Shown here in pieces: positions 2,735 to 29,550 of a DNA stretch of 32,000 nt (its first letter is position 1; each line of letters opens with the position of its first letter). Position numbers and translations under genes: made by a program. Source of the DNA: Verrucomicrobiota bacterium (GTDB taxonomy: Bacteria > Verrucomicrobiota > Verrucomicrobiia > Verrucomicrobiales > DEV007); the NCBI GenBank assembly GCA_018970725.1, contig JAGWVU010000003.1, forward strand, positions 67,035 through 99,034, written 5' to 3'. The notes beneath the pieces were generated by a model. The model did no database searches. It worked only from the letters and a program-made list of their open reading frames with translations, and had not been told where the DNA came from.

Positions 2735-3391
2735 ATGAGCGATCCGATTGAAACCGCCACCCTGATCGATGCCCTGAATTGGCGCTATGCCACGAAGCGT
2801 TTTGACCCCGGCCGCCGGATCCCGGAGGAGACATGGCAGGCGCTGGAACAGTCCCTGGTCCTGACACCCTCTTCCTATGGGATGCAGCCGTGGGAGTTTC
2901 TTGTGGTGACCCGTCAGGAGCTCAAAGAGCAACTGGTTCCTCATTCCTGGGGACAACGTCAGGTTGCGGATTGCTCCCATCTTCTGGTCATCGCGGCGCG
3001 GCGGGCGCTGGGCGAGGGGGATGTGGATCGTCTGATGTCCGCCCTTGCCTCCATTCAAGGCCGTTCGCCGGAGCAGACCAAGGGGTATCGGGAAATGATC
3101 ATCCGGGATGTCGTCGAGGGACCCCGCTCCAGGGACGTGACCGGTTGGGCCCGGTTGCAATGTTACATCGCACTCGGTAGCTTTATGACGGCGTCCGCCT
3201 TGTTGGGGATCGACACCTGCCCCATGGAAGGGTTTCTCCCTGATCGATACGACGAGTTGCTTGGACTTGCGGAGCGGGGCTTGACCGCAGCGGTGGTTTG
3301 TCCGTCGGGATATCGCCATCCCGGAGATCCGAACGCCTCCCTGCCGAAGGTCCGGTTTCCTGTGGAGGAAATGGTGCGCCATCTTGCCTGA
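2735..3391 (+). CDS. NAD(P)H nitroreductase-family flavoprotein
   Basis: LNWRYATKRFDPGRRIPEETWQAL...PSSYGMQPWEFLVV...QCYIALGSFMTASALLGIDTCPMEGF is typical nitroreductase-fold sequence. Start chosen at MSDPIE (ATG 2735); ATG 2699 is also possible. Confidence 0.8.
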   Translation: MSDPIETATLIDALNWRYATKRFDPGRRIPEETWQALEQSLVLTPSSYGMQPWEFLVVTRQELKEQLVPHSWGQRQVADCSHLLVIAARRALGEGDVDRLMSALASIQGRSPEQTKGYREMIIRDVVEGPRSRDVTGWARLQCYIALGSFMTASALLGIDTCPMEGFLPDRYDELLGLAERGLTAAVVCPSGYRHPGDPNASLPKVRFPVEEMVRHLA

Positions 3392-14254: not shown

Positions 14255-14272
14255 GGAGGATTTGGCGCGGGT

Positions 14273-15511
14273 TCAGGCGGATTGCCCGGCTCGGGCGGGG
14301 CGCTTCCGCTTGCGCTTGCGATCAAAGGTAGCCTTCCAGCGTTGATGCATCCAGATCCACTGTTCCGGGTGACGCAGGAGCGCGGTTTCGAGTGCCTTGT
14401 TGAAAGCGGTGGCGGTCAGGCGGATGGCGTCCTCGGCCCGTTCATGATCGACTACCGGGACGGGCTCTTCGAAGCGCAGGACGTGGGTGCCATCCGGTTC
14501 GCGCCAACTCGTGGCCGGAATGACGGGGGCCCCGGTGGACATGGCGATGATCGGCAGGCTGCGGAACGTGTTGGCCGGGGTGCCGAGAAAATCGGCCGGG
14601 ACTCCATCGCGCTGCGTGGCGTGTTGGTCGTAAATGAAGACCACGATTTGGCCTCGGCCGAGAAGGTCGAGGATGGAGTCGAGGGACCCCCGGCTCGGAA
14701 TGGTCCCGAAGCCGGCTTGGTGGAAGCGCCAGGTGACGAAGCGGTTGAGGAACTCGGGATTGAGTGGCTTCCGCACGAAATGGAAAAGGCCCTTGAACTC
14801 GGTGAACTGGCGGATGCCATCCACCGTGGCCACCTCCCAGTTTCCGAAATGTCCGGTGAGGAGCAACATCCCCTTGCCTTGGGCCAAGGCGCGGGCGGCG
14901 ATCTCCATCCCTTCGATGCGGATGGATCGCTTCCGCAGGAAGAACTCGCCGAAACATCGGACAAAGTGACCGTAGTAGTCCTGCGCGAGGAGGGCGATCT
15001 CCTGCTCCGTGAGAACTTCGCCGAACGCGCGGCGCAAGTTGGTCAGGACCACGCCGCGCCGCAAAGGGAAGAGATGGTAAACCAGCTTGCCGAACCAAGG
15101 CGGGGTAAAAGCGCGTTTTTCCGCTACCGCCACGGCGGAAGCGGAGTTGGCGGTGTGGGTCAGGGAGAGGCGGATTGCGGTGATGAACGCGCGGTTCATG
15201 GCGGCGTGGGCCGCGGGACTGGCCTCAACATGGGGCGCACCGTAACCATCGGAACAAACCGAAAAGTCCGCGGGGCCGAGCTGCCCGAGCGCGGTTTCCT
15301 TGGGAAAGAGTTTGCAGCAGGCCTCCTTGGCGGCAAACCGGGCGGCCAAGCTGCCAACCCGGCCCGCGCCCTCCCCGGCGTCGGCGATTTCCCGGGCGCT
15401 GAACAGTTTGCCGAGATCCTCCGGAGGCGTGGCCCGAAGCAATTTCTCGAGGCGAGGGATCTCAACCGTATCGATCCCGCACCGCGTTCCTGGCGGAGGC
15501 TCGGGCGTCAT
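14273..15511 (-). CDS. Fusion protein: AcpS-type 4'-phosphopantetheinyl transferase (N-terminal) + LpxL/HtrB-family lipid A-type (lysophospholipid) acyltransferase (C-terminal)
   Basis: N-terminus CGIDTVEIPR...LAARFAAKEACCK...SLTHTANSASAVAVAE follows the AcpS pattern. The C-terminal domain has LLLTGHFGNWE (HxxxxE-type box of LpxL-like acyltransferases) and ...HPEQWIWMHQRWK. Start at MTPEPPP gives an ATGA overlap with the upstream KS stop (15508-15511). Confidence 0.8.
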   Translation of the reverse strand: MTPEPPPGTRCGIDTVEIPRLEKLLRATPPEDLGKLFSAREIADAGEGAGRVGSLAARFAAKEACCKLFPKETALGQLGPADFSVCSDGYGAPHVEASPAAHAAMNRAFITAIRLSLTHTANSASAVAVAEKRAFTPPWFGKLVYHLFPLRRGVVLTNLRRAFGEVLTEQEIALLAQDYYGHFVRCFGEFFLRKRSIRIEGMEIAARALAQGKGMLLLTGHFGNWEVATVDGIRQFTEFKGLFHFVRKPLNPEFLNRFVTWRFHQAGFGTIPSRGSLDSILDLLGRGQIVVFIYDQHATQRDGVPADFLGTPANTFRSLPIIAMSTGAPVIPATSWREPDGTHVLRFEEPVPVVDHERAEDAIRLTATAFNKALETALLRHPEQWIWMHQRWKATFDRKRKRKRPARAGQSA

Positions 15512-16794
15512 GAAGGGGTGTTCCGGCGGACCAGCAGGGCCACGTTCATGCCTCCGAAACCACGACAAATGATCAGGGCGATGTCGCTGCGCGGCCGCTG
15601 GTGATCGCAGGAAACGGGAAGCGTGGCGAAGGCGGGATCGACCTCCCGCAAGGTTGGAATTCCCGGGACCACGTCGCGCGCGAGACACTCGAGGACCAGA
15701 GCGGCATCCAGCGTTCCGGCGGCGGCGAGCGTATGGCCAATGGCCCATTTGAACGCGGTCACTGGTGGGACTTGATGGCCAAAGACCCGTAGAATCGCGG
15801 CGGCTTCCGAGGCGTCGGAATTCGGCGTTCCGTTTCCGTGGGCCACAATCATCCCCACTTCCTCCGGGGAAATCCCGGCATCCGCCAAGGCGAGGCGGAT
15901 GGCCCGGGTGGGGCCGTCACCATCTGGCTGCAATTGGACGATTCCGGAAGCTTCACTGACGGTTCCGGACCCGAGAAACTGGCCGAGGACCGGAGCCTGG
16001 CGGGCCAAGGCGGATTCCAACGGCTCCAAGGCAAGGGCGGCGGCCCCTTCGCCAAAGAGCGTGCCATCGCGACGGGCATCGAAGGGGCGCACGGCATCGC
16101 TGGAGAGGAGCCCGAGGCGATGATAACCGAGCACGGACTCCGGCTCGATCGGCGCGTCGTGTCCTATGGCGACGATCCGGTCCGCCTCACCGATCCGGAG
16201 GGACGCCGCCGCTTCCGCCACCGCGAGGGCTCCGCTGGCGCACTGGTTGGTGATGCAGGCATTGGTGCCCTTGAACTGGTTGCGGATGCCGACGTGGCAA
16301 AGAACGTTGTTCGGAAGAATGCGCAGCAGCCACATCGGATGCACCGAGGACGCGAGGTCGCGCCCGAAAGCGGTCATGTCCCCCTTGGACGAGTGCAGCA
16401 AGGGAAAGAAGTCATAGTTAACTTGATAGGATCCTCCGCCGGATCCGACGACCAGGCCGGAGCGGTCGTTGAACAGAGGAACCCCGGTTTCCGGCAGCGT
16501 GTCGCGCAAGGCCGGAAATCCGGCGGACCGGATGGCCTCGTCTCCGGCGTAGATTCCGAACAGGTCGGTTCGGGAAATTGACTTGTGGAGTTTGCGGTCG
16601 TCCACCAGGACCTGATCCTTGATCCCGTTGATCTGGGCGGCCACCCGCACGGGCCAATCTGAGGCGTCCCAGTAACCGATCGGTCCCACCGCGGAACGGC
16701 CCTCCAGAATGGCGTCGAGAATGGCCGCGGGACGGAGTCCGGCGCCGCAGACCGCGCCCGAACCGGTGATGGCAATGCGTGGGGAGGGGCTCAT
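15508..16794 (-). CDS. Beta-ketoacyl-ACP synthase family protein (second KS, divergent FabF/FabB-like)
   Basis: RIAITGSGAVCGAG; active-site Cys in ITNQCASGALAV; His motifs VAHGNGTPNSD and KWAIGHTLAAAG; C-terminal RGFGGMNVALLV. Confidence 0.85.
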   Translation of the reverse strand: MSPSPRIAITGSGAVCGAGLRPAAILDAILEGRSAVGPIGYWDASDWPVRVAAQINGIKDQVLVDDRKLHKSISRTDLFGIYAGDEAIRSAGFPALRDTLPETGVPLFNDRSGLVVGSGGGSYQVNYDFFPLLHSSKGDMTAFGRDLASSVHPMWLLRILPNNVLCHVGIRNQFKGTNACITNQCASGALAVAEAAASLRIGEADRIVAIGHDAPIEPESVLGYHRLGLLSSDAVRPFDARRDGTLFGEGAAALALEPLESALARQAPVLGQFLGSGTVSEASGIVQLQPDGDGPTRAIRLALADAGISPEEVGMIVAHGNGTPNSDASEAAAILRVFGHQVPPVTAFKWAIGHTLAAAGTLDAALVLECLARDVVPGIPTLREVDPAFATLPVSCDHQRPRSDIALIICRGFGGMNVALLVRRNTPS

Positions 16795-16807
16795 CGGGTC
16801 GTTCCAA

Positions 16808-18094
16808 TCAGGGTTGGCGGAAGGTGAGGCAGCTGTTGGATCCGCCGAAGCCGAGGGAATTGGAAAGGGCCGCCCGGATCCGGAGTCGATGGGATGTGCC
16901 GGTCACCATGTTGAGCGATTCGTTCCCCGGGTCCGGCGTCTTGAAGTTGGCGCTCACCGGAGCGATGCCGTCGCGGATGGCCAGTGCGCAGACGGCCGCT
17001 TCCACCGCGCCGGCGGCCGCGATGAGGTGACCCATGCAGCCCTTGGTGGAGCTGACCGATACCTCCGGCAGGCGTTCACCCAGCACCACCTTGAGGGCGG
17101 CGCACTCGCTCTGGTCGTTCATCTGGGTCGAGGTCCCGTGGGCGTTGACGTAATCAATGTCTTCCGGTCCCAAGCCCGCGCTGGCCAAGGACTGACGGAT
17201 CGCCTGGATCGGACCGTCGCCGTCTGGCGGTGAATCGGTGATCCGGTAGCAACTCAGCGAATTCCCGTCCCCGGCCAGTTCCGCATAAATCTCCGCGCCG
17301 CGGGCGAGGGCATCCTCCCAGCGCTCCAATACGAGAAAGCCCGCGCCTTCACCGAGGACGAAACCGTTCCGGGTCACGTCGAAGGGGCGGCTGGCCCGCC
17401 AAGGTTCGTCGTTGTCGGTGGACAAGGCGCCGAGAAGGCAGAAGCTGGACAGTCCGATCGGGTTGAGCATCGAATCGAAGCCACCGACCAGCATTCGGTC
17501 GACGAGACCGCGTCGCATGACCTTCAGGGCGGTCCCGATCGCCTGCCCGCCGGAGGCGCAGGCCGTGTGAACGGCGGAACTGTAACCGCGAATGCCGAAG
17601 TGATGGGCGAGCAGGGCCAGCCCGGCATTGCATTGGGTGCGGCAGAAGTAAACGGGATCCACAGGGTATTCCGAAGCCGCCATTCTGGTGGCGTCGAAAG
17701 ATCCCTCCGGCGCACAATATTGACGGACCACGTCCAGTTCCTCAACGGAGATGCTCATCATGCCGGCCCCCACGGAGAGTCCCCAACGGTGGGCGGTGGC
17801 CGGATCGGGGCGGATCCCGGCGTCTGAGAGCGCTTCCCCGGCGGCGGCCAGGGCGAAACGGTGGCAACGGGACGCTTGTTTGAGCAGTTTCCGGGGGGCC
17901 ATCCCCTCAAAGTCGAACCCCTTCACCTCGGCACCGATGCGCGTCGTGAAACCACTGGCATCGAAGGTCGTGATCGGGCCGGGGCCGGGCCGTCCTTCGA
18001 GGAGCGAACTCCAGGTCGATTCCCGATCATTCCCCACCGGGGTCACCAAGCCAATTCCGGTGATCGCGATCCGCATCCTTGGATTGTTGCTCAT
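16808..18094 (-). CDS. Beta-ketoacyl-ACP synthase II-like (FabF-like KS)
   Basis: MRIAITGIGLVTPVGN; Cys in VHTACASGGQAIG; NAHGTSTQMND; STKGCMGHLIAAAG; SLGFGGSNSCLTF. The start overlaps the dehydratase stop by 4 nt. Confidence 0.9.
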   Translation of the reverse strand: MSNNPRMRIAITGIGLVTPVGNDRESTWSSLLEGRPGPGPITTFDASGFTTRIGAEVKGFDFEGMAPRKLLKQASRCHRFALAAAGEALSDAGIRPDPATAHRWGLSVGAGMMSISVEELDVVRQYCAPEGSFDATRMAASEYPVDPVYFCRTQCNAGLALLAHHFGIRGYSSAVHTACASGGQAIGTALKVMRRGLVDRMLVGGFDSMLNPIGLSSFCLLGALSTDNDEPWRASRPFDVTRNGFVLGEGAGFLVLERWEDALARGAEIYAELAGDGNSLSCYRITDSPPDGDGPIQAIRQSLASAGLGPEDIDYVNAHGTSTQMNDQSECAALKVVLGERLPEVSVSSTKGCMGHLIAAAGAVEAAVCALAIRDGIAPVSANFKTPDPGNESLNMVTGTSHRLRIRAALSNSLGFGGSNSCLTFRQP

Positions 18095-18927
18095 TTCCCT
18101 GTAATTGCGGCCAATTCCACCCGCGCCGCGCCTTGGAGGCGGCCTCCCGCCTTGGTCTGCACGGAAACCAGCAACGCGGCAGCGGAATGTTCGAGGACTT
18201 TCGCTTCCAAATCAAGCCCGCTCCCCGGCGGGATGAAGGCACGGAGTTTCATGTCGCACACCGCCCGGGCCGCCCATCGGCCTGTCTCCGGGGGGATCGA
18301 TCCGGCGAGGGCATCGACCAGTTTCAGGTTCATGTTCATCAACAAGGTGCCCGGAAAGACCGGGCGGCGCGGAAAATGATCTTCGAAGAAAGGCGCCTCG
18401 CCGGGAACCTGCAGTCTGGCCCGGGCGATGCCGCCGGTCTCCACCACGAGTTCCTCCAACGCGAATTCAGGGACGCCACGAAACGCTCCCGGTTCCGCAC
18501 CGGCTCCACACAGGACGGCAAGGCGCTCGCGCATCGCCGCCGGATCATCGAATTCCCCTGCGGGCATCATGGGGCCGACGCAATGGTGGAGGCGGAGAAC
18601 CGGGATCCCATCGACCGAGGCCAAACCACCATAAGCCACCGCCTCCGCATCCGCGGTTTCCAGTTCCGCGGAAAGCTCCAGCGTCTGTCCCGGGGCCGCA
18701 TCCCCGAGAAGTTCCACCCTTCCGGCGATCCCTGCGACGGGGCGATGGGAGAAGTCGATGGCGGCCATGGCGGACCAAGCCGCCAGCTGGCCCGTGGCCT
18801 CCGCCACCAGAGAGAGGGGAAACCGGGGAAGACCGGGCGGGATTTGCCAGGAACCGGCCACACGCACACCCGGTTCCAGAAGGGAGATGCGGTCGACGAA
18901 GGAGAAAGCGCGGTAACGATGATGCAT
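18091..18927 (-). CDS. Didomain (tandem hot-dog) FabA/FabZ-like 3-hydroxyacyl-ACP dehydratase
   Basis: The C-terminal half has the FabZ-like motif PFFEDHFPRRPVFPGTLL. The N-terminal half has FSFVDRI...PLSLVAEATGQLAAW (hot-dog helix motif without the His). The ATG shares 1 nt with the ACP stop. Confidence 0.7.
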   Translation of the reverse strand: MHHRYRAFSFVDRISLLEPGVRVAGSWQIPPGLPRFPLSLVAEATGQLAAWSAMAAIDFSHRPVAGIAGRVELLGDAAPGQTLELSAELETADAEAVAYGGLASVDGIPVLRLHHCVGPMMPAGEFDDPAAMRERLAVLCGAGAEPGAFRGVPEFALEELVVETGGIARARLQVPGEAPFFEDHFPRRPVFPGTLLMNMNLKLVDALAGSIPPETGRWAARAVCDMKLRAFIPPGSGLDLEAKVLEHSAAALLVSVQTKAGGRLQGAARVELAAITGK

Positions 18928-19352
18928 CAGGCGCCGCGGGCCGCGTGTTGTTCGCGGATGATCATCTTGGCGAAGGTTTCCACCGTGAACAGCTTGGGGA
19001 TCTCGGCCGAGCGGATCGGGGTTTTGAGGCGATCCGCTGGAACTTCACTGAGGAATTCACGGAGACGTTGCTCGCCCTCGGGAGTCACTACGCCGCCTTT
19101 CTCAAACTCGGCCTCGGCCAACGGGCCGCGGGCGTCCTCCACGATTTTGCCGCGCGGGATCTTGACCTTGAACTCGCGTTCCAAGCGGAAAACGATATCG
19201 AGGAAATCGATGGATTCGCCTCCCAGGTCGTTGATCAGAGAGGAGGTGGGTTGAACGTCGTCCGGTTCGCACCCAAGCGCGTCGGCGATGATTTCGGCGA
19301 CCTTTGGCAGGATCGCCTCGATTTCTTCCTTGGTGATGTTCTCGTTGCTCAT
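18927..19352 (-). CDS. Acyl carrier protein with ~55-aa C-terminal extension (141 aa)
   Basis: LINDLGGESIDFLDIVFRLEREF is the phosphopantetheine attachment context (DSxD-like with Ser), roughly aa 40-62. The extra C-terminal region has no motif I recognise. Confidence 0.8.
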   Translation of the reverse strand: MSNENITKEEIEAILPKVAEIIADALGCEPDDVQPTSSLINDLGGESIDFLDIVFRLEREFKVKIPRGKIVEDARGPLAEAEFEKGGVVTPEGEQRLREFLSEVPADRLKTPIRSAEIPKLFTVETFAKMIIREQHAARGA

Positions 19353-19370
19353 ATCAATCAGAATCAGTCT

Positions 19371-20135
19371 TCAGTCCATTTTGAAGCCCCCGTCCACCGG
19401 GAGGATCTGGCCGGTGATGTAGTCGGCGTATCGGGAAGCCAGAAACCAGACGGCATGGGCGATCTGCTCCGGCTTGCCATAGCGCTTCAGCAGGATGCGC
19501 GCCTTGATCTGGTCCCCCGCGAGGTCCCGGACGGTCTGGGACATCTCGGTCTCGATCACGCCCGGGGCCACCGCGTTGACGCGCACGTTGCGGGCCGCCA
19601 CTTCACAGGCGAGGGACCGGGTGAACGCGTCGATCGCGCCCTTGCTGGCGGCGTAGTTGGTTTGGCCGCGCCCTCCCTTCGCACCGGAGACGGAGCTGAG
19701 ATTGATGATGCTGCCCCGGCGTTTGGACATCATGAAAGGAACCACCGCTCGGCACATGTTGAACGTGCCCTCCACGTTGGTCCGCAGAACCTCGCGGATT
19801 TCCTCATCGCTCAAGGCGACGAGCAGGTTGTCCCGGACGACTCCGGCGTTGTTGACGAGGACATCGACCCTCCCGGTCCGGTCGGCGATCGATTCCACAA
19901 AGGTCTGGCAGGCTGCCGGATCCCGGACATCGACCTGACAGGCCGTGATCCTGCCCTCCGGTCCGGATGCGGAGACCTCCCGGGCCGCGGCGGCGTTCTC
20001 CCGCCAGGTGAAGGCGACCTCCATTCCGGCGGCCGCCAAAGTTTCCACGATGGCACGACCGATGCCCCGGCTGCCGCCGGTGACGATGGCCACTCCGCCG
20101 GCCAAGCCTGAATCCGAGAGACTGGGGGCGTTCAT
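19371..20135 (-). CDS. 3-oxoacyl-ACP reductase-like classical SDR (FabG-like KR)
   Basis: VAIVTGGSRGIGRAI, NNAG, and the catalytic S...YxxxK (NLSSVSG...YAASKGA). Start taken at MNAPSL (ATG 20135), 1 nt after the upstream stop. The alternative ATG 20162 would overlap by 26 nt. Confidence 0.85.
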   Translation of the reverse strand: MNAPSLSDSGLAGGVAIVTGGSRGIGRAIVETLAAAGMEVAFTWRENAAAAREVSASGPEGRITACQVDVRDPAACQTFVESIADRTGRVDVLVNNAGVVRDNLLVALSDEEIREVLRTNVEGTFNMCRAVVPFMMSKRRGSIINLSSVSGAKGGRGQTNYAASKGAIDAFTRSLACEVAARNVRVNAVAPGVIETEMSQTVRDLAGDQIKARILLKRYGKPEQIAHAVWFLASRYADYITGQILPVDGGFKMD

Positions 20136-20136
20136 T

Positions 20137-20892
20137 TTATCCTGAAATGCAGTAACCTCCATCGACGACGAGGGTATGTCCGGTGATCAGTGCGGCCTCC
20201 GGCAGGCACAAGAGATAGAGGGCGTCGGCCACGTGTTCCGGCGTCAGCGGCGTCGGGATCGGCGTGCGCTGGGCGGACTCCGCGAGCAGGTTCTCCCGGT
20301 TCGGGAAATGTTTCAGGGCGTCGGTATCGACCACGCCAGCGCTCACGATGTTCACCCGGATGCCCCGGGGGCCGAGTTCCTGGGCCAAAGCGCGGGCCAG
20401 TGATTCCAACGCCGCCTTCGAGGCGCCGATGAAGGAATAATGAGGGATGGCGCGGACCGAGCCCATGCTGGAGAGTCCGATGAAGACGCCACCCTGAGGC
20501 ATGATCGGGACGGCCTGTTGGGCGAGGGTATTCAACGCGAGGGCGTTCGTTTCCATGCAGCGACGCCAGTGCTTCAGCGTCATCTCGAGGGCCGGGCGGA
20601 GCACTCCGATGGCCGCGTTGCTGACCACGATGTCCACTTGGTCGAACTGCTTGCGGAATTCGCCGAAAGCCTCGGCGAGGCTCGAGGGATCGCTCACATC
20701 CGCCTGCAACGCGATCGCGCGGCGTCCCAGGTCGCGGATTGCCTGACACACCTCCTCCGCCTCCTGATGACTGTTGAAGTAGACGATGGCCACGTCACAA
20801 CCCGCCCGGGCCAGCTTGAGGGCGCTGGCCCGTCCGATGCCGCGAGCACCGCCGGTGATGAAAGCTGTCTTGCCTGCAAGCGTTTCGCTCAT
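20137..20892 (-). CDS. Enoyl-ACP reductase-like SDR (FabL-like)
   Basis: Extended by-eye similarity to Bacillus FabL: NAAIGVLRPALEMTLKHW...NALAL...LSSMGSVRAIPHYSFIGASKAALESLARALAQEL...VNIVSAGVVDTDALKHFPNRENLL. Confidence 0.75.
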   Translation of the reverse strand: MSETLAGKTAFITGGARGIGRASALKLARAGCDVAIVYFNSHQEAEEVCQAIRDLGRRAIALQADVSDPSSLAEAFGEFRKQFDQVDIVVSNAAIGVLRPALEMTLKHWRRCMETNALALNTLAQQAVPIMPQGGVFIGLSSMGSVRAIPHYSFIGASKAALESLARALAQELGPRGIRVNIVSAGVVDTDALKHFPNRENLLAESAQRTPIPTPLTPEHVADALYLLCLPEAALITGHTLVVDGGYCISG

Positions 20893-21010: not shown

Positions 21011-22261
21011 ATGGACACCCGGAACAGCCGACGGCACTTTCTCTCCCTCGCGACCACCGCTTTGGGCGGAGGCATCCTCAGGGCCGGGGAGGGGGCCTCG
21101 TTTCCTCCCCGGCGCGCGATCACCCGGGGACCATCCCACCACTGGTTCGGGTATTACGACAAGCTGCAGTTCGATCCTTCCGACCGTTTTGTTCTCGGCA
21201 TGCGGGTCGGATTCGAGCATCGCTCACCGCTTCCGGACGACACCATCGAGGTCGGAATGGTCGACCTCGAGGAGGGCGACCGCTGGGTTCCCCTGGGGTC
21301 GACCAAGGCGTGGAACTGGCAGCAGGGCTGCATGTTGCAGTGGATTCCCGGGACCCGATCCAAGGTGATTTGGAATGATCGGGAGAAGGATCGCTTCGTC
21401 TGCCATCTGCTCGACGTGCAAACCGGCGAGAAACAGACCCTGCCTCACCCCGTTTATGCGTTGAGCCCGGACGGGAGGGAAGCGGTCACCTGTGATTTCT
21501 CACGGGTCGCCGACTGCCGCCCCGGGTATGGTTACGCCGGAATCCCGGACCGGTTTTCGCATGTCATGGCCCCGGCGGAGACCGGCATCAGCCGGGTCAA
21601 CCTTGAGACCGGCGCGGCCAGGTTGATCCTCTCCCACCGCAAACTGGCGGAAACCGGGGTGGTTCCTGAGAATCATCCGACCTCGAAGCACCACGCCTAC
21701 CACCTGTTGGTGGGGCCGGACGGCAGGCGCTTCATCCTTCTGCACCGTTGGACCCAGCCCAATGGCGGGCATCTCACCCGGCTCATCACGGCCAATCTGG
21801 ATGGATCCGATCTGCGCATCGTAATCCCGAATGGCTACGCCTCCCACTTCATCTGGCGGGACGCCAGCCATATCCTCTCCCAAGCCAGGGGATGGCTCGG
21901 TCATCAGAACTGGGGAAACTTTCTTTTCGAGGATAAGGATTCCGGGGTCATCGCCGAAATCGGACGCGGCGTGCTCGATTCGGGCGGCCATTTCACCTAC
22001 CTCCACCAAAACGAGTGGATCTTGAACGATACTTACCCACAGGGCGTCCGCCGATTGGCGACGCCGCATCTCTACCACATCGCCGGGAACCGGAGGATCG
22101 ATCTGGCGCAGTTTCCCCAACCGGCCGAATATACCGGCGAGTGGCGGGTCGATTGCCACCCGCGTCTCAGCCGGAAGGAACGCTGGGTCTGCGTCGATGC
22201 GCCCCACCAAGGCACGGGGCGTCAGCTGCACCTGATCGATCTCGAAGGGATCTTCGGGTGA
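21011..22261 (+). CDS. Tat-signal beta-propeller protein (TolB/PD40-like repeats), function unknown
   Basis: MDTRNSRRHFLSLATTALGGG is a twin-arginine motif. Repeated SPDG/GPDG blade signatures. C-terminal RVDCHPRLSRKERWVCVDAPHQGTGRQLHLIDL resembles terminal TolB-like blades. Confidence 0.55.
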   Translation: MDTRNSRRHFLSLATTALGGGILRAGEGASFPPRRAITRGPSHHWFGYYDKLQFDPSDRFVLGMRVGFEHRSPLPDDTIEVGMVDLEEGDRWVPLGSTKAWNWQQGCMLQWIPGTRSKVIWNDREKDRFVCHLLDVQTGEKQTLPHPVYALSPDGREAVTCDFSRVADCRPGYGYAGIPDRFSHVMAPAETGISRVNLETGAARLILSHRKLAETGVVPENHPTSKHHAYHLLVGPDGRRFILLHRWTQPNGGHLTRLITANLDGSDLRIVIPNGYASHFIWRDASHILSQARGWLGHQNWGNFLFEDKDSGVIAEIGRGVLDSGGHFTYLHQNEWILNDTYPQGVRRLATPHLYHIAGNRRIDLAQFPQPAEYTGEWRVDCHPRLSRKERWVCVDAPHQGTGRQLHLIDLEGIFG

Positions 22262-22263
22262 AT

Positions 22264-23592
22264 TCAGCTCGCGTCCGAGACTGATGAAAGGTGGAAGGCG
22301 TCGACCACCAGCGGCGGCACGTGGGCGGGCCCGTCGCTCTCGCTCCCGAGCACCCGCTCGGGAATGCCGGACGCGAGGATCTGCCGGAGGACATTGGCGG
22401 GGGACTCGTTGAACCGGAAATTTTTCACCGGTCCGGCGAGTTCGCCGTTGCGGATGGCAAAGGTTCCGTCACGGGTCAGGCCGGTGTAGAGGAGGGATTC
22501 CGGCCGGACCATGCGGAGATACCAGAGCCGGGTGATGAGCACGCCGTCCTTGACCTGGGCGATGAGTTTCTCCATGGATTGGCCTTCCCCGGGGATGAAG
22601 AAGTTGCCTGGCATGGGCTTGGACTCCAGACCCTTGGCCTTGGCCCAGTAGCGGCCGGTGACGAGGTTGCGGAGGATCCCGTTTTCGATCCACGCCGTCG
22701 GCCCGAGAGGCTCCCCGCCAGCATGGGTGAGACAGGGGGCCGGGCGGAAAAGCGGATCCGAGCGCAGGTTGGCGGTTCCGAAGAGTTGTTGGCCGATGGG
22801 ATCCCTCCCGTCCTTGGCGAGCGCATTGAGAAAGCTGCGGCCCTCGTCGAAATCCCGTCGCTCCAGGCTCCACAACAACAGGGAAACAAGATCCCTCACC
22901 GCGGCAGGCTCGAGGAGAACCATGACCCGTCCCGGCGGATGCTCGGCGGGATGGCGCGACGCCAACGCCTTGCGGATCGCGCGCTCTCCGACGGGGCCGA
23001 GGTCGAGATCGGAGGAGTCGGTGACCTGGGTGCTGGCCCAGCCGGAGCCGCCGTCCCGGGTGCGGGCGGTCATGGAGAAACCGACGGACGTTTGCCGCTG
23101 GGCCACGAAGAGCCCCTTGCTGTTGGCCAAGGCGTGGGAAGCCACGGTCTTCTGGAGGTAACCGGCGCTCTCGAGGCCGGCGGCCCGGGCCGCCTCGATC
23201 ACGGGGCGGACCCAACGCAGGGCGTCGTCAGGTCCCGAGACCGCGGTCTTTTCCGAGAAGGCGAGCGGTTCGGCGAAGGTGGCGGGGGCGACCGGAGGCA
23301 TGTGCTCGGGATTTTCCGGGGCCAGTCTGGCCATGGCCTGCACCTTGGAAACCGCCTCGCGCAGGCTTTCCGGATCCGTCTCTTGGAACGAAATCGAGGC
23401 GGAACGGCGGCCGTAACTCACGCTCAGACCGATCTGACGCCGGGAGGTCAGGGAGTTCGACGTGATGTCGTTGTTCGCGTGCCGGAGATGAAGATCGGTG
23501 CTGTCGTCGATCGACACCACGGCTTCATCGGCCTCGACGAGATCGAGGATCCGGGCGGAGAGGGATTGGAGGTCGGCGTGGTTCAAGTCCAT
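22264..23592 (-). CDS. PmbA/TldE-family metallopeptidase subunit (no signal peptide)
   Basis: Length and overall pattern fit the PmbA_TldD fold (..VSIDDSTDLHLRHANNDIT.., ..GVLITRLWYLRMV.., C-terminal ..PPLVVDAFHLSS). It sits 6 nt downstream of the TldD-like gene. Start at MDLNHADL (ATG 23592). Confidence 0.8.
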   Translation of the reverse strand: MDLNHADLQSLSARILDLVEADEAVVSIDDSTDLHLRHANNDITSNSLTSRRQIGLSVSYGRRSASISFQETDPESLREAVSKVQAMARLAPENPEHMPPVAPATFAEPLAFSEKTAVSGPDDALRWVRPVIEAARAAGLESAGYLQKTVASHALANSKGLFVAQRQTSVGFSMTARTRDGGSGWASTQVTDSSDLDLGPVGERAIRKALASRHPAEHPPGRVMVLLEPAAVRDLVSLLLWSLERRDFDEGRSFLNALAKDGRDPIGQQLFGTANLRSDPLFRPAPCLTHAGGEPLGPTAWIENGILRNLVTGRYWAKAKGLESKPMPGNFFIPGEGQSMEKLIAQVKDGVLITRLWYLRMVRPESLLYTGLTRDGTFAIRNGELAGPVKNFRFNESPANVLRQILASGIPERVLGSESDGPAHVPPLVVDAFHLSSVSDAS

Positions 23593-25220
23593 GCGGTGCG
23601 GGTTCCTCCACAGCCACATTCGCGGGGGTGGGACGGGTGAAAAGCCGTCTTCGCTCCGGATTCGTTGGCCGTGTTCAGGATGTTGATGTTGCGGAAACGG
23701 GCCGGGACCGCCCCGTGACTGACGGCGGCGATCTGCCCGGGCTGCCCCTTGCCGCAGTTGAAGGCACCGCCCAGTTCATAACTCGGCTCGCCGCCGATCC
23801 CGTCACAGGCGTTCCAGAAATCGACCGAATTCCCTTGGTAGGCCACATCGCGCAGCATCCCGTCCAGTTTCCCGTGGCGGATGCGGTGGAAGATCTGGCC
23901 GGTGAACTGGAAGTTGTAACGCTGCTGATCGATGCTCCAGCTTCCGTTGCCTTCAATGTAAATGCCGTCCTCGACCCCCGAGATGAGGGAGGCGGCGTTC
24001 GCGGCAGGGTCCGGTCCGGGTTGGAGGGAGATGTTCGGCATCCGCTGGATGGGGAACGAGGCGAAGCCGTCGGCGTAGGCGCAGCCGTTGGAGGCCTCGC
24101 GTCCGATCAGCGCGGCCTGTCCCAGCGCCATCTGGAAATTGCGGAAAACGCCTTCCTGGATGATGGGGAACTCCTTGCCCCCGGTGGCGGTGCCGTCGTC
24201 ATCCCAGGCCACCGTGGCCAAACCACCGGGAGCGGTGCGGTCTCCGACGATGGTGACCCATTGGCTGCCGTAGCGGAGTTTGTCGAGCTTGTCTGGCGTG
24301 CAGAAGGAGGTTCCCGCGAAGTTCGCCTCGTAACCGAGCGCACGATCGAGTTCCGTAGGATGTCCCACGGTTTCATGGATCGTGAGCCACAGATTGCTGG
24401 GGGCGATCACGAGATCCAGTTTCCCTGATTTGACGGAAGGGGCCGCCATTTTTTCGCGCGCCTGCTCCACGGCGAGGGCGGACTCCGTGGCCCCATCCCA
24501 GCGCCGCACGTGCTCGTACCCGGCCGCCCGGGGCGGGAGGAGGCTCTGCCGGGTGGAGAAGTCGCCCTTCTTCGCGTCGAGCACGGTGACGTCGAAGGCG
24601 GGCTGAAGCCGCACCCGCGATTGTTGGACCCGGGTGCCGAAGGAAGTGGCAAGCCACTTGCGTTCACGGACCTGCAACAAATGGGCGTGGCAGAAGTTCG
24701 CGCCCTTGTCCAGGGCGGCGCGGGTGATGCGCAAGAGGTCGCCCGTTTTCTCTTCCAGCGACACGGTGAAGGGATCGATTTCGAGGGGCATCTCCCAAGA
24801 ACCGGTGTGCGGGGGGAGGGACTCGATCTCGATGCGGCGCAGGCGCCAGCCGGCTTGCGCTCGCGCCAGCGCCACGGCTTGCTCCGTGAGGCGGATGACC
24901 TCCGCTCCGGTCACGTCGGCACTGGCCGCGAAACCCCAACACCCGTCCACGAGAACCCGGACCGAGAGACCAGCCGTGGAAGAAGCATCGATCCCCTGCA
25001 CCATGGATTCGCGGACGAAGATCGATTCTTCATCGGTCTGCATCAGGTGAACCGCAGCGAAGGAAGCGCCGCGAACCTTGGCGTGCTCGAGCGCGGCATC
25101 GGCCAGGGTGGGGAAGAGGCGGGAAAGCCGCGCCGCCCGTTCCTCGGCGATGGCCCATCGGCTGGTGAGGAGGGCGAGACCGGCGGCACTGGTGCCGCGG
25201 AGCCAATCGCGTCGATTCAT
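23583..25220 (-). CDS. TldD-family metalloprotease with twin-arginine leader
   Basis: MNRRDWLRGTSAAGLALLTSRWAIA looks like a Tat leader. Metal-binding motif IHETVGHPTELDR (HExxxH). C-terminal ..GGAFNCGKGQPGQ.. is typical of TldD. Confidence 0.85.
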   Translation of the reverse strand: MNRRDWLRGTSAAGLALLTSRWAIAEERAARLSRLFPTLADAALEHAKVRGASFAAVHLMQTDEESIFVRESMVQGIDASSTAGLSVRVLVDGCWGFAASADVTGAEVIRLTEQAVALARAQAGWRLRRIEIESLPPHTGSWEMPLEIDPFTVSLEEKTGDLLRITRAALDKGANFCHAHLLQVRERKWLATSFGTRVQQSRVRLQPAFDVTVLDAKKGDFSTRQSLLPPRAAGYEHVRRWDGATESALAVEQAREKMAAPSVKSGKLDLVIAPSNLWLTIHETVGHPTELDRALGYEANFAGTSFCTPDKLDKLRYGSQWVTIVGDRTAPGGLATVAWDDDGTATGGKEFPIIQEGVFRNFQMALGQAALIGREASNGCAYADGFASFPIQRMPNISLQPGPDPAANAASLISGVEDGIYIEGNGSWSIDQQRYNFQFTGQIFHRIRHGKLDGMLRDVAYQGNSVDFWNACDGIGGEPSYELGGAFNCGKGQPGQIAAVSHGAVPARFRNINILNTANESGAKTAFHPSHPRECGCGGTRTAWT

Positions 25221-25311
25221 GAGGAGAGCGTAGGGGAGGGAACGGGGAATGTCGAATCCGGAGTGAGCGCGGGCCTTGCGGATCGCGCGAATCGCTCCCA
25301 ACTTGCTGCAG

Positions 25312-26034
25312 ATGGCGGCGGCGGTTTCGGTTCCGGTCTCAGCGGACGTGGTTTTGGACAGTCGGCTCGCTTTGGCGCACCCCGGGCAGGGATGGATGGC
25401 GGTGGCGGACGTGCACTATGGATTTTCCGGTGCCATGCGCGCTTCCGGCGGGTTGTTTCCGATTTGGGGGGACGCGACCGTGGAAGAGCGGCTCGGGGCC
25501 CTGTGCAGGGATTACCGGCCGGAAACTTTGATCATCAACGGGGATCTGGTGCATGGGCGGGTCTGTCGGGAAGCCTTCGGCGCCTTTCTGGAGCGCTTGG
25601 CGCGGCTGGCCCCGCGGCTGGTGCTCGTCGGCGGCAACCATGACCGCAGCCCCACGGCACGGGCCGCCGCGTTCGTGGAAAGTCATGCGGAGCCGGGTTT
25701 TTTCTTTCATCACGGGCATCTGGAGCTTCCGGTGCCGCAAGGAAGTGTGGAAGTTGTGGGCCATCATCACCCGGCCATCGTGCTGCGCGACGGCGCCGGG
25801 TTGAGGCTCAAGCTGCCGGGATTCGTCACGGAAAACCTCGGTGAAAAGGCCCGTTGGATCCTCCCCGCTTTTTCGCCATGGGCCGGAGGCGCGGTTTGGC
25901 CGGATGCGGAGGGCGGTGTGACGCGTCGTTGGGTCTGCGGGCCGGGCCGGATTTTGCGGATCGATGGCGAACCTGAAGCCGGGGCGGCGACCTCCACTTG
26001 CCAGAAGGTGTCTGATCCGTTAACGGAAGGCTGA
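25312..26034 (+). CDS. PdeM-like (ligase-associated DNA-damage-response type) metallophosphoesterase
   Basis: Calcineurin-like motifs in PdeM order and spacing: VADVHYG, INGDLVHG, VGGNHDR, FFHHGH, GHHHPA, then LPAFSPWAGG. Start uncertain (ATG 25312 preferred, 25276 possible). The stop lies 1 nt before the next ATG, with GGAAGG 5-10 nt upstream of that ATG. Confidence 0.7.
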   Translation: MAAAVSVPVSADVVLDSRLALAHPGQGWMAVADVHYGFSGAMRASGGLFPIWGDATVEERLGALCRDYRPETLIINGDLVHGRVCREAFGAFLERLARLAPRLVLVGGNHDRSPTARAAAFVESHAEPGFFFHHGHLELPVPQGSVEVVGHHHPAIVLRDGAGLRLKLPGFVTENLGEKARWILPAFSPWAGGAVWPDAEGGVTRRWVCGPGRILRIDGEPEAGAATSTCQKVSDPLTEG

Positions 26035-26035
26035 C

Positions 26036-27418
26036 ATGTCCGATCTCGATTCCTTGCGCGAGGCGCTCCGCCATTCCCCCGACAACGTGCCTTTGCGGCT
26101 GCTCTTCGCCCAGTCCTGCCTGGAGGACTTTCACTTCGGCGAGGCACGGGAGTCTTACGAGCACGTCCTCCGGGTCGAGCCCGGGCACGAGGGGGCCAAC
26201 CTCGGCATCGTCCGGGTCTTATTCGGTGAGGCCCTGTTTTCCGAGGCGATCGTCAGGGCGGAAGCCTTGGTGAAGGTGAATCCCTCCTTCGCGGCGGCTC
26301 ATCTCATGCTGGCGCGGTTGCATCTGGCGGAGGGGGACAAGCCCTCGGCGATCGGGAGCTACCGCACGGCGGTGAGGATCGACCGTGGCTTCATGGACGA
26401 GCCCCTGGCCCGCCAATTGGGAATTCCGCCGGGGGGTCAGGAGCCGGAGGAGGCGCGCCCCGTGGCCATGGGCTTGGGAGCGTCGGGCGGATGGCGCGAG
26501 GTCGAGGAGGGAGGCCCGCCGGGAGGGGAACCCGATTTTGCGGCGGAGATTGAGCGGCCGGGGCAGACCTTCGCCGACGTGGGGGGCATGGAAGCGCTCA
26601 AACAGCAGATCCGGATGCGCATTCTCCATCCGATGAAACATCCGGAGCTCTTCCGGGCCTACGGAAAGACGGCGGGCGGGGGCGTGTTGCTCTACGGTCC
26701 TCCCGGTTGCGGCAAGACCCTGATCAGCCGCGCGACCGCCGGAGAGATCGACGCCAACTTCTTTTGCATTGGTCTGCACGACATCCTCGACATGTGGATC
26801 GGGTCGAGTGAGAAGAACCTTCACGGGGTCTTCGAAATGGCCCGGGCCCACGCGCCCTGCGTCTTGTTTTTCGACGAGGTGGATGCCCTGGCGGCGGACC
26901 GCAAGGATTTCAAGGCCAGCGCGGCCTCGCGTTCCGTGATCAATCAGTTCCTCGCCGAACTGGATGGCGGGGTGAGTCACAACCACGGGGTCCTGTTCCT
27001 TGGAGCGACGAACGCACCCTGGCACATCGACCCTGCCTTCCGGCGGCCGGGGAGGTTTGACCGGACCGTGTTCGTTCCCCCGCCGGATGAGCCGGGCCGC
27101 GCCTCCATTCTCCGCCTTTTGGCCAAAGACAAACCGGTGGCGGATTTCGATGCGGAGGAGTTGGCGCGCAAGACCAAGCATTTTTCCGGGGCGGATCTCA
27201 AAGCGGTTTTCGATGCGGCAGTGGAGAGCGTGTTGGAATCGGCCCTCGAGGCGGGGCGGGTGCTCCCGGTGACCCAGAAGCACTTGCTGCGCGCGGCCAA
27301 GGAGCATCGCCCGACAACCCAGGCCTGGTTCGAAACCGCGCGGAACTACGCGCTCTATGCCAACCAGGGCGGATATTACGACGATGTCTTGGAATATCTC
27401 GGCCTGAAAAAGCCATGA
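26036..27418 (+). CDS. TPR-domain AAA+ ATPase (classical clade, CDC48/FtsH/Vps4-like single ATPase module)
   Basis: About 120 aa of N-terminal TPR-like helices and a Gly/Pro/Glu linker. Walker A LLYGPPGCGKT, Walker B VLFFDEVDAL, second region of homology ATNAPWHIDPAFRRPGRFDR. Confidence 0.85.
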   Translation: MSDLDSLREALRHSPDNVPLRLLFAQSCLEDFHFGEARESYEHVLRVEPGHEGANLGIVRVLFGEALFSEAIVRAEALVKVNPSFAAAHLMLARLHLAEGDKPSAIGSYRTAVRIDRGFMDEPLARQLGIPPGGQEPEEARPVAMGLGASGGWREVEEGGPPGGEPDFAAEIERPGQTFADVGGMEALKQQIRMRILHPMKHPELFRAYGKTAGGGVLLYGPPGCGKTLISRATAGEIDANFFCIGLHDILDMWIGSSEKNLHGVFEMARAHAPCVLFFDEVDALAADRKDFKASAASRSVINQFLAELDGGVSHNHGVLFLGATNAPWHIDPAFRRPGRFDRTVFVPPPDEPGRASILRLLAKDKPVADFDAEELARKTKHFSGADLKAVFDAAVESVLESALEAGRVLPVTQKHLLRAAKEHRPTTQAWFETARNYALYANQGGYYDDVLEYLGLKKP

Positions 27419-28677
27419 GCGAAGCGTTTTCCAGGGCGTGTTTACTCGCGGAGCGGCAGCGATGGGTCGAAGCGGAGAAATTTCTCCGGGAGCATCTCTC
27501 GTTTGATCCGGAGGATGACCGGGCTCTTTACCTGCTCGCGGTCTGTGCCCGGATGGGCCAGGGCCGCGACCGGGAGGCATTGCAAATCATCGATCAAGCG
27601 ATCGCGCGGGCCCCGGAAAATGGCGGGCATCATGCGTTGAAAGCCAAGATTCTCGCCGACCTGAAGCGCCCGGGGGAGGCCGCGGCGAGCGCCGGGGAGG
27701 CGTTGCGGATCGATCCGGAGGATGCCGGGTTCCACGCGGCCCGGGCCTATGTCCACCAGCAGCAGGCGGAATGGTCCGCGTGCGAGGAGGCATCGCGACG
27801 TGCGTTGTCCCTGGATTCCGATTGTGTGCTGGCGCAGAACCTTCTTTCGGCCGCGCTCACGTTCCAGAATCGGACGGATGAACTGGCGGAACAGATCGGC
27901 GCCCGGCTGGCCCGGGATCCGAATGACTCGCTCACCCACGCCTCGGCCGGTTGGGCCGCCCTGCGGTCCGGAGAACCGCGCCGCGCGGAAACGCATTTCC
28001 TTGAGTCGTTGCGCTTGGATGCCGTCAATGAATCGGCGCGGCTCGGGCTGCTGGAAGCCTTCCGGGCCAGATCAGGGGTCTACCGGGCGCACCTCGCATT
28101 CTCCTTTTTCGCTGCGAGCCTCGCGACCAAATACCGGATGTGGTTTTTCCTGGGGATTTATGTGGTTTACCGCGTCTTGCGGGTCGCGGCGGAGAGCGTG
28201 TCCCCGGTCTTGGGTTGGTTGGTGGTGGCGTTGTATCTGCTTTTCGTCCTGTGGGGCTATGTGGGTCGTGGGATTGGAACCCTCCTCATTCTCGCGGATC
28301 AAAGGGCGAGGCAGGCGCTCAATGCCCGGGAACGATGGGAGGGAATCGCGGTCGGCGGCTCGGTGGTGCTGGGCCTGATGTTGCTGTCCACGGCCCTCGC
28401 CACCCGGGGGGAGATCGCGCAACGGTTCGCCTTGGCCGGGGCGGTATTGGCCGGTTCCTCGATTCCTTGGTCCATGTCCCTTTCCAACGGAAACCTCACC
28501 GGACGCCGGATCTATGGGGTCATTGCCACCGGAGTGTCCTTCTGCGTGCTGGTGGTGATCGGCTGGGTGACCGTGTTCCCGCAATTGGGAATCTGGGGCG
28601 CCCATGCCTTCCAAGCCTCCCTTTACGCCACGGTGGCATGCACCTGGATGGCGTTGTTCCGCTTCAAGTATGAGTGA
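27415..28677 (+). CDS. TPR-repeat protein with C-terminal polytopic membrane domain (~5-6 TM)
   Basis: ATGA overlap with the AAA+ gene. About 210 aa of TPR-like repeats (..ALRIDPEDAGFHAARAY.., ..SLRLDAVNESARLGLL..). Hydrophobic segments follow: MWFFLGIYVVY, VLGWLVVALYLLFVLWGYV, IAVGGSVVLGLMLLSTALA, IYGVIATGVSFCVLVVIGWVTVF and others. Confidence 0.7.
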   Translation: MSEAFSRACLLAERQRWVEAEKFLREHLSFDPEDDRALYLLAVCARMGQGRDREALQIIDQAIARAPENGGHHALKAKILADLKRPGEAAASAGEALRIDPEDAGFHAARAYVHQQQAEWSACEEASRRALSLDSDCVLAQNLLSAALTFQNRTDELAEQIGARLARDPNDSLTHASAGWAALRSGEPRRAETHFLESLRLDAVNESARLGLLEAFRARSGVYRAHLAFSFFAASLATKYRMWFFLGIYVVYRVLRVAAESVSPVLGWLVVALYLLFVLWGYVGRGIGTLLILADQRARQALNARERWEGIAVGGSVVLGLMLLSTALATRGEIAQRFALAGAVLAGSSIPWSMSLSNGNLTGRRIYGVIATGVSFCVLVVIGWVTVFPQLGIWGAHAFQASLYATVACTWMALFRFKYE

Positions 28678-29466
28678 CGGTGGCGGGTTGGGCACCGCGA
28701 CTCTCCCTGCGGATTTTCGCTCACGGAAAACCCGTTTGAAATCTCGTAAAGTGTAGCCCTGCCCCCTTCTTTTTTCGTCAAAATGAGACCATTGCTGCGT
28801 TTTCCAATCCGTTGGTCGCCCGGCAATTTCTGAGTGCCTGGCTGCGGGTCTCTGGATGGGGTCGCGGTCAAGGCATGACACTGTCCGGTCGGGGAGGCCG
28901 GCCCATGTCGGCGGGGATGGATTCAGGCGCGAAAGCCTGCACATCGGGAGGGGACCGGAGTCTTTTCTCAGGCACCTTCGCGGTCTCCAATGTCAGGTTG
29001 CCAAGCCGCTGTCGCCAGCGTGCGCTCCTTGATGCACGAAAGAAGACCCTGCCAAAGCAGCGTCCCGGCAAGGGGGCAAATCCCTCCATGCGCCGAGCCC
29101 CCGCCATCCCCGGCCGACCGGTGACCCGTCGCAGGGAAGGATGGAACACGGGGGGATTCACCAAGCGTTCTGGTCGTTGACCCATGGAGCGACAGTCAAC
29201 TCGGCTCAATCCCGCCCGTGCGGTGACGAGGGCTGGAAGGGGGAATTGGGACCTCCCTTCTCTAGCTTTCCCGCCCAATCGATCAAACTTGGCGTGGGCA
29301 AGTTCCGCACCGCTTCCCCTTGAGAAAGCCCCCACGCGCGGCCCGGTCTGGCCGTGGTGCGCGCAATTCGTGCAGATTGGTATGCGAAATGCTTTCCGAC
29401 ACTTTGGTCAGTCGGTGGTCGGTGGGGCTTTTCCTTTGGTTGCCCAGCCGGTCCGTTCAGGGGAGT

Positions 29467-29511
29467 GGCCCCACGGCGCCGCGGTTTCGGCGTGCGTGGG
29501 GCCCTTTTTTT
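29467..29511 (+). terminator. Rho-independent terminator-like hairpin + U-tract, 40 nt upstream of coaB
   Basis: GGCCCCACG (29467-29475) pairs with CGTGGGGCC (29495-29503). An inner 5-bp helix CGCCG/CGGCG closes a 6-nt loop. The hairpin is followed by C + T7 (29505-29511). Confidence 0.7.
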
Positions 29512-29550
29512 CTGGCTGACAGACGGGAGTGGGTCGGGTAGAGACTGGAA

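Follow-up and report, generated by a model that had tools for sequence, protein, structure and literature searches.

A conserved gene pair in Verrucomicrobiota encoding a TPR-AAA+ ATPase and a TPR membrane protein, with a possible role as a membrane-docked unfoldase

Three closely packed genes lie on the plus strand at positions 25312–28677 of a 32,000-nucleotide (nt) stretch of Verrucomicrobiota DNA (the whole of which is called the window here; contig JAGWVU010000003.1, assembly GCA_018970725.1), as read from its letters and its list of open reading frames (ORFs). They encode a metallophosphoesterase (g1), an ATPase that combines tetratricopeptide repeats (TPR) with an AAA+ module (g2), and a protein that combines TPR with six transmembrane helices (g3). 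The original prediction treated the three as a single, translationally coupled system. Comparison across genomes gives a different picture: we are highly confident that g2 and g3 are the conserved unit and that g1 is a bystander outside the window's own clade. The features are as follows, in window coordinates.

25312..26034, plus strand: g1, metallophosphoesterase, MPE/PdeM-like, 240 amino acids (aa) from the ATG at 25312
25276, plus strand: alternative TTG start of g1, giving the 252-aa form used by the public gene call P0201
26026..26031, plus strand: GGAAGG, a Shine-Dalgarno-like hexamer within the g1 3' end, 4 nt ahead of the g2 ATG
26036..27418, plus strand: g2, TPR-AAA+ ATPase, 460 aa, with a single classical-clade AAA module
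26036..26410, plus strand: g2 N-terminal TPR domain, residues 1–125 (TPR_19, TPR_16 and TPR_2 matches at residues 56–117; mean column conservation 0.61)
26411..26551, plus strand: g2 variable linker rich in Gly, Pro and Glu, residues 126–172 (the least conserved g2 segment, mean 0.38)
26552..27244, plus strand: g2 AAA+ module, residues 173–403 (mean conservation 0.81)
27245..27415, plus strand: g2 conserved C-terminal extension, residues 404–460 (mean conservation 0.75)
27415..27418, plus strand: ATGA in which the stop of g2 overlaps the start of g3, read from the sequence
27415..28677, plus strand: g3, TPR and six-transmembrane-helix protein, 420 aa
27415..28071, plus strand: g3 cytoplasmic TPR array, residues 1–219 (Pfam, alignment, AlphaFold2)
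28072..28674, plus strand: g3 six-helix membrane domain, residues 220–420 (AlphaFold2, hydropathy, positive-inside rule)

The TGA stop of g1 (26032–26034) is followed by a single C at 26035 and then by the g2 ATG at 26036. The gene boundaries, the 1-nt gap, the GGAAGG and the ATGA overlap had all been reported in the original prediction and are exact on re-reading of the sequence. The domain identities it gave (a metallophosphoesterase, a TPR protein with a classical-clade AAA+ module, and a TPR protein with a polytopic membrane part) are likewise borne out by Pfam, NCBIfam and AlphaFold2, and the TPR arrays that it saw on both g2 and g3 correspond to Pfam TPR matches in each. A 4-nt ATGA overlap is the commonest overlap class among bacteria, so the close spacing of g1, g2 and g3 is by itself ordinary. 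What goes beyond chance is the kept adjacency of g2 and g3, not close spacing as such. A promoter scan found none, and the count of terminators was about that of shuffled sequence.

The evidence for a two-gene unit comes from its persistence across genomes. We searched 185,579 species genomes with an alignment of g3 alone and kept the best 80 loci. At least 534 species genomes encode a relative of g3, and the best 80 loci come almost entirely from Verrucomicrobiota, among them the cultured strain Chthoniobacter flavus Ellin428 (L075). The three window proteins were then compared with the 80 loci by tblastn; two loci had no upstream sequence and were excluded, leaving 78 that could be tested. 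In 75 of these 78, g2 lies directly upstream of g3, in the same order and on the same strand. The intergenic distance was measured at 80 junctions, taken from the loci found with g3 and from five further loci found with g2: 28 junctions have the 4-nt ATGA overlap, two have a 1-nt overlap, and 56 have a gap of 30 nt or less. Two remote relatives of g3, with 23–27% identity in the membrane domain, each have a TPR-AAA gene directly upstream. Contexts found with g2, which reach into other orders (a complete genome from Verrucomicrobiota and two metagenome-assembled genomes (MAGs), one of Verrucomicrobiales and one of Chthoniobacter), contain g2–g3 only, among unrelated neighbors. Identity is ~38% for g3 and ~57% for g2, meaning that g3 evolves faster. 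Clustering of all flanking ORFs gave no conserved third gene family, the best cluster being present at 19 of ~75 loci; no flanking family recurs at more loci than this, although no screen was aimed at ESCRT-III-like proteins. The flanking cluster that could be identified is, from its sequence, ribosomal protein L19, consistent with synteny within a sub-clade. The earlier suggestion that the ATPase and the membrane protein function together is strongly supported by this synteny, both at the 75 of 78 loci and in the remote relatives. The statement that no characterized system has this composition has also held up, with none found in family libraries, PADLOC or the full-text literature; the literature search yielded no published account of the g2–g3 pair, a weak negative given that subscription journals lie outside its coverage.

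Two observations on the distribution of the pair can be added. On a remote soil contig (L090, 493–4474), the TPR-AAA and g3 genes lie directly after rplJ and rplL. A few loci are labelled Planctomycetales, Leptospirales, Kiritimatiellae or Eisenbacteria, and these may be mis-binned.

Does g1 belong to the unit? Sixty loci include the whole of g2 plus 900 nt or more upstream of it. Only two of them have g1 with the pair, and each of the two is closely related to the window (g3 identity at least 75%). Orthologues of g1 are widespread in Verrucomicrobiota, at 47–52% identity. In the three genomes that were sampled (L086–L088) each is a lone gene next to that of a Lys/Asp-tRNA synthetase, and genes for a ligase, an Lhr helicase or an AAA protein are absent from the surroundings. 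A conserved trio was rejected on these two counts. The original prediction had proposed a three-part system in which g1 would be a nucleic-acid-hydrolyzing arm of the machine. A lack of synteny among the homologues in other genomes was an outcome that the prediction itself had named as refuting it. The gene-neighborhood comparison shows just this for the trio, which places any such arm outside the conserved machine, while g2–g3 clearly passes the same check.

g1 is instead an independently conserved MPE/PdeM-like, Mn-type phosphoesterase. It matches Pfam Metallophos (PF00149) with 32.9 bits against a cutoff of 21.5, and among solved structures the MPE nuclease of Pseudomonas (6nvo, E=1.1e-15) comes closest to it. 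Its metal-binding motifs VADVHYG, INGDLVH, GGNHDR and VGHHHP align with the DVH, GD..H, GNHD and GHxHP of MPE, and all of the motifs of the calcineurin-like metallophosphoesterase superfamily (D-x-H, G-D, G-N-H-[DE], G-H-x-H) are present. g1 has its fold family and metal-binding motifs in common with Pseudomonas putida MPE. However, its best NCBIfam model, PdeM (TIGR04123), scores 106.3 bits, below the 150-bit cutoff. A ligase-associated MPE would also be expected in a cluster with genes for an ATP-dependent DNA ligase, an Lhr-type helicase and an exonuclease, and none of these was found among the scanned ORFs of the window or beside the three solitary orthologues. Assignment of g1 as a full PdeM or ligase-associated MPE was rejected for both reasons.

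What kind of protein is g2? Its Pfam matches are AAA (PF00004, 134.6 bits), AAA_lid_3 and TPR_19. The AAA+ module carries a Walker A motif (GPPGCGKT), a Walker B motif (FFDEVD), a pore loop 1 ([ML][WY][IL]G), and a second region of homology with arginine fingers (ATNAPWH.D.AF.RPGRFD). With all of the clade motifs present in addition to the PF00004 score, the earlier classical-clade call stands. Orthologues across Verrucomicrobiota are 50–63% identical, and 76 of them show no variation at the catalytic residues of Walker A, Walker B, sensor-1 and the arginine fingers; the pore-loop aromatic is W in 44 and Y in the other 32. Judged by these motifs, g2 appears to be an active ATPase capable of substrate threading. 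The C-terminal extension is also under constraint, with W431, F432, N437, Y438, A439, Y441, L452, L455 and G456 conserved at 95% or more. At the extreme C-terminus (window 27398–27415, residues 455–460; orthologues L003–L085) is a near-invariant [YF]-L-G-[IL]-K-K, in which L455 and G456 are each found in 74 of the 76 sequences and K459 in 69. This tail may be a docking peptide, recognized by a TPR domain or by another ring.

The best solved relatives of g2 are p97/Cdc48 (207 bits to D2 and 162 bits to D1), and its pore loop 1 aligns with the MWFG of p97 D2. Membership of named families was considered and rejected in each case. g2 scores 219 bits with CDC48 (TIGR01243; cutoff 802), over model positions 445–676 only, and has one AAA module. 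It scores 194.8 bits with FtsH (TIGR01241; cutoff 600) and has no Peptidase_M41 match; 197 bits with PAN (cutoff 500); and 158.4 bits with Vps4/CdvC (NF041006; cutoff 650), with an N-terminus that matches TPR families rather than MIT. The score with EccA (TIGR03922) is 20.9 bits against a cutoff of 466.65, and no Ecc genes were found in the window. The score with IetA/IteA (NF042959) is 106.4 bits against 510, and the neighbors of g2 are the TPR and phosphoesterase genes, not a protease gene. g2 is far below the cutoff of every named subfamily and is therefore a distinct single-ring classical-clade AAA+ protein.

g3 is 100% identical to a public entry, "hypothetical protein KGS60_02010" (Verrucomicrobia bacterium). 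Its Pfam matches are to TPR families alone, in the first ~210 residues. An AlphaFold2 model built from a 30-sequence alignment (predicted local distance difference test score (pLDDT) 92.3, predicted template modeling score (pTM) 0.80) has 13 TPR-type helices (residues 3–219), making six TPR pairs, that continue into a long helix and then into a six-helix membrane domain; the membrane domain modeled alone has a pLDDT of 91.5. Hydropathy agrees with the six modeled transmembrane helices. Counts of lysine plus arginine in successive loops, from 30 homologues, are 4.7, 0.4, 4.3, 0.3, 2.0, 0.3 and 2.2. By this alternation the chain begins and ends in the cytoplasm, which also holds its TPR array and its two larger loops; the periplasmic turns are very short. 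Conservation peaks at the TPR–membrane junction (residues 190–232, mean 0.78 versus 0.60 for the whole TPR), which has the motif HFxEALRLD...AREGLLxxFRARSxxYR, with a core of H-F-x-E-[AS]-L-R-[LI]-D and A-R-x-G-L. The other conserved sites are a D-R-x-A-R-x-A-L...E loop after the second transmembrane helix, P351, T410-W411 and the basic tail, and all of them are on the cytoplasmic side.

The membrane domain of g3 has no Pfam match, even at E<=5, and a Foldseek search of the PDB found no fold relative (best E=0.8). A profile of the domain was searched against 1.84 billion cluster representatives, with clusters at 50% identity. At E<=1e-30 it matched 830 of them, and at E<=1e-3 at least 2,486. 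Among the 150 best matches listed, nearly every one has the same ~420-aa layout. By these sequence comparisons, the domain is a large, uniform family without annotation. The family may be defined by a length of ~420 aa, six TPR pairs, the junction motif, the D-R-x-A-R-x-A-L loop, a TW near the C-terminus, and a TPR-AAA gene directly upstream, and the g3 of the window has every one of these traits. A separate observation concerns the last TPR repeats (window 27937–28020, residues 175–202), where a cluster of polar residues (H175, G179, H194, F195, E197, R200 and D202) is invariant or nearly so; this cluster, next to the membrane, could be a ligand, metal or peptide site. One family member, P0448 (893 aa), has a C-terminal extension of ~470 residues beyond the membrane domain, with no Pfam match. 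Fusion proteins of g2 and g3, of the Rosetta-stone kind, were looked for among the homologues and none was seen; this sole long g3 homologue lacks an AAA domain.

How might the pair work? The intact pore loops of g2, the wholly cytoplasmic conserved surface of g3, and the persistent linkage of the two genes, with its frequent stop/start overlap, point to a membrane-docked unfoldase. On balance, we favor the reading in which g2–g3 is a two-gene module that acts as a membrane-docked, protein-threading AAA+ ATPase, with g1 not a member. That the two proteins touch each other is likely; the specific function of threading or extraction at the membrane is put forward more tentatively, at somewhat below even chances. 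g2 would be a soluble, single-ring threading ATPase whose TPR domain is held by a flexible linker and whose C-terminal tail is conserved. g3 would be an inner-membrane protein whose six-helix domain keeps a rigid cytoplasmic TPR array against the membrane, and it would dock a g2 hexamer at the cytoplasmic face. Docking could occur in either of two ways. TPR domains commonly bind C-terminal peptides (Hop-EEVD, Pex5-PTS1), and the TPR array of g3 may similarly bind the [YF]LG[IL]KK tail of g2, in which case the exit side of the ring would face the membrane. Alternatively, the TPR domain of g2 may bind the conserved cytoplasmic loops or the basic tail of g3, with the entry face toward the membrane in an FtsH-like manner, an arrangement that would suit the extraction of membrane proteins. 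In both cases, the aromatic pore loops would act on a membrane-associated substrate, which would be unfolded, extracted or remodeled at the expense of ATP. In the window's clade, g1 would have come to lie upstream of the pair and is probably co-transcribed with it, without being a member of the machine. A bolder version, which we regard as doubtful, is that g2–g3 is a previously unrecognized bacterial machine for membrane-protein extraction or insertion, widespread and possibly core in Verrucomicrobiota, in which a Cdc48-D2-like hexamer would sit on a six-helix ring or platform through a TPR–tail contact.

Several points weigh against a membrane-docked unfoldase composed of g2 and g3 alone. 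Three of the loci (L014, L077, L079) have a g3 homologue without an upstream g2 within the fetched flanks; these are two Methylacidiphilales/Verrucomicrobiales MAGs and Verrucomicrobia bacterium LW23, and the copies may be orphans or paralogues. The membrane domain of g3 has no conserved intramembrane polar set of the kind that would suggest an enzyme or a transporter, and "anchor" is thus the default reading for a protein with no identifiable catalytic or transport signature. The 1-nt g1–g2 spacing is found in three of the four distinct trio arrangements (the window, L001/L002 and L007, as opposed to L006), such that g1 may be co-expressed with the pair and may be functionally tied to it locally. 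This last point bears on the proposal that the window's clade has a genuine three-component system, with the phosphoesterase recruited as a nucleic-acid- or nucleotide-hydrolyzing arm. The shared 1-nt gap with its Shine-Dalgarno-like GGAAGG speaks for such a system, as does gene order: an 86%-identical relative found with g2 has TldD/PmbA followed by g1-g2-g3, and relatives down to 66% g3 identity retain this order. We nevertheless consider it improbable, given the absence of g1 from 58 of the 60 testable pair loci, the conservation of its orthologues as solitary genes in other orders, and its lack of a TPR or other docking-type domain. In addition, L006, whose g2 is 89% identical to that of the window, has a 435-nt spacer (3187–3621) between the end of g1 and g2, so the coupling of g1 to g2 is not fixed even inside the window's clade.

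The other rivals concern g2 and g3 themselves. The two genes could be co-regulated without g3 being an anchor: g3 could then be a dedicated client that is folded, assembled or gated by g2, or else a membrane-state sensor or regulator acting as the switch of an unfoldase in the cytosol, and that unfoldase might feed soluble substrates to a protease such as ClpP, Lon or FtsH. The pair synteny applies equally to this proposal, which would also accommodate the faster evolution of g3 and the invariant C-terminal tail of g2 (C-terminal tails of proteasomal ATPases dock other rings). However, no protease gene is conserved beside the pair, the TPR array and conserved cytoplasmic face of g3 resemble a binding platform rather than a substrate, and a one-client chaperone across a phylum would be unusual; we judge this alternative unlikely. 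Adjacency might reflect nothing beyond shared transcription of functionally unrelated genes, since operons can hold such genes and the g2–g3 interaction is a predicted one. Yet order and strand are kept at nearly all testable loci, and in relatives down to 23–27% identity, while all other neighbors change, and the ATGA overlaps recur; the pattern is typical of interacting partners, making mere co-transcription very improbable. Finally, the original prediction had raised a stress or defense module, and an anti-phage system resembling IetA-type AAA+ would fit the PADLOC IetA models that match g2 with up to 114 bits, together with the NCBIfam IteA score given above. These matches, and those to TRIP13 in PADLOC, are limited to the generic AAA core, and the IteA score is well under its cutoff. 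There is no IetS-like protease, and neither g1 nor g3 has a PADLOC match. The genes occupy a fixed chromosomal, housekeeping context, and a tblastn search with the membrane domain of g3 against 72,556 plasmids and 50,697 phage records gave no match; wide spread within one phylum suggests vertical inheritance. A defense role was accordingly rejected and has a very slight chance of being correct. The same surroundings and the same lack of plasmid, phage and PADLOC matches are consistent with a core cellular role for the pair.

How does the pair compare with known systems? The D2 ring of Cdc48/p97/VAT and g2 are alike in the AAA core (207 bits), an MW[FI]G pore loop, arginine fingers in the second region of homology, and a post-lid R-x-[ST] helix. 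g2 differs in having one AAA module, not two, and TPR in place of the double-psi-barrel N domain. The inferred logic of the pair is that of Cdc48/p97 in endoplasmic-reticulum-associated degradation (ERAD) and mitochondrial extraction, where a separate membrane protein recruits the unfoldase, although g3 is a six-helix protein of a new kind and there is no sign of a ubiquitin-like system. Among bacteria, the FtsH chain itself includes transmembrane helices and an M41 protease domain, and LapB has one N-terminal anchor, a cytoplasmic TPR and a rubredoxin domain. The transmembrane helices and the M41 domain of FtsH are absent from g2, and g3 has a C-terminal six-helix domain in place of the N-terminal anchor and rubredoxin domain of LapB. 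ftsH and lapB are not adjacent genes, unlike g2 and g3. By functional analogy, FtsH with the TPR membrane adaptor LapB (YciM) of E. coli (PMC9356133) is the nearest bacterial counterpart. Like the pair, it joins a classical-clade AAA+ protein on the cytoplasmic side of the inner membrane to a protein that is anchored in the membrane and presents a TPR array in the cytoplasm. Classification of g3 itself as a LapB/YciM-type adaptor was rejected: its layout is N-terminal TPR followed by the C-terminal six helices, and no LapB model was among its NCBIfam matches.

Other known systems are more distant. EccA of type VII secretion has the same order as g2, N-terminal TPR and then C-terminal AAA, and is the cytosolic ATPase of a membrane machine, as is inferred for g2. 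However, the AAA module of EccA is CbbX-type, and no Ecc genes are near g2. Msp1/ATAD1, and Pex1/Pex6 with Pex15/Pex26, are classical-clade AAA+ rings at a membrane that extract proteins from the bilayer; the resemblance to the pair is a functional analogy only, as these systems are eukaryotic, have single-helix anchors without TPR, and were compared in sequence at the generic AAA core only. The pair is best described, from sequence, as a variant of the membrane-associated classical AAA+ theme that lies outside each of the named families.

What would follow if the two proteins bind each other? Bacterial membrane-protein quality control is thought to depend mainly on FtsH, in which anchor, ATPase and protease are in one chain. 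Binding of g2 to g3 would provide a second, modular route for bringing an unfoldase to the bacterial inner membrane, and would give a function to a large family of "hypothetical TPR proteins". Should the extraction-machine reading be true, the pair would be a prokaryotic functional counterpart of Cdc48-ERAD, Msp1 or Pex1/6 in a phylum of the Planctomycetes-Verrucomicrobia-Chlamydiae (PVC) group. The idea of a trio is corrected in any case, with the phosphoesterase a bystander outside one small clade. What takes its place is a large, conserved two-gene module, with an unannotated membrane-domain family, whose predicted mechanism is of a familiar kind. Cultured C. flavus Ellin428 carries the pair, which is therefore open to experiment.

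The window as a whole is an ordinary chromosomal region, with a two-component system, hydrolases, a sulfatase and the GTPase Der. A TldD/PmbA pair is divergent from g1. Downstream of g3 are genes for a phosphopantothenate-cysteine ligase domain, an inositol monophosphatase, IspF and ALAD. About 870 nt (28678–29550) separate g3 from the first of these, which is the next recognizable gene, and contain ORFs without a Pfam match; Rfam and tRNA scans of the window, this interval included, gave no match. At locus L001 (1–2182), of the 86%-identical relative, Eco57I-like and XhoI-like restriction-modification genes lie just past TldD/PmbA, where the window has other genes. The TldD-like protein of the window (23583–25301, minus strand) has an internal start, MNRRDWLRGTSAAGLALL, that resembles a twin-arginine export signal, which would be unusual on a TldD/PmbA-type peptidase. 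A 416-aa protein (21011–22261, plus strand), which has no Pfam match, begins with MDTRNSRRHFLSLATTALGG and is also twin-arginine export signal-like. At lower coordinates on the minus strand (12752–20892) is a run of biosynthesis genes of lipid or polyene type, for an amine-oxidase/phytoene-desaturase-like flavoprotein, a lipid-A-type acyltransferase fused to a 4'-phosphopantetheinyl transferase domain, two beta-ketoacyl synthases, a FabA-like dehydratase and two short-chain dehydrogenases, which looks like an aryl-polyene-like or specialized fatty-acid cluster.

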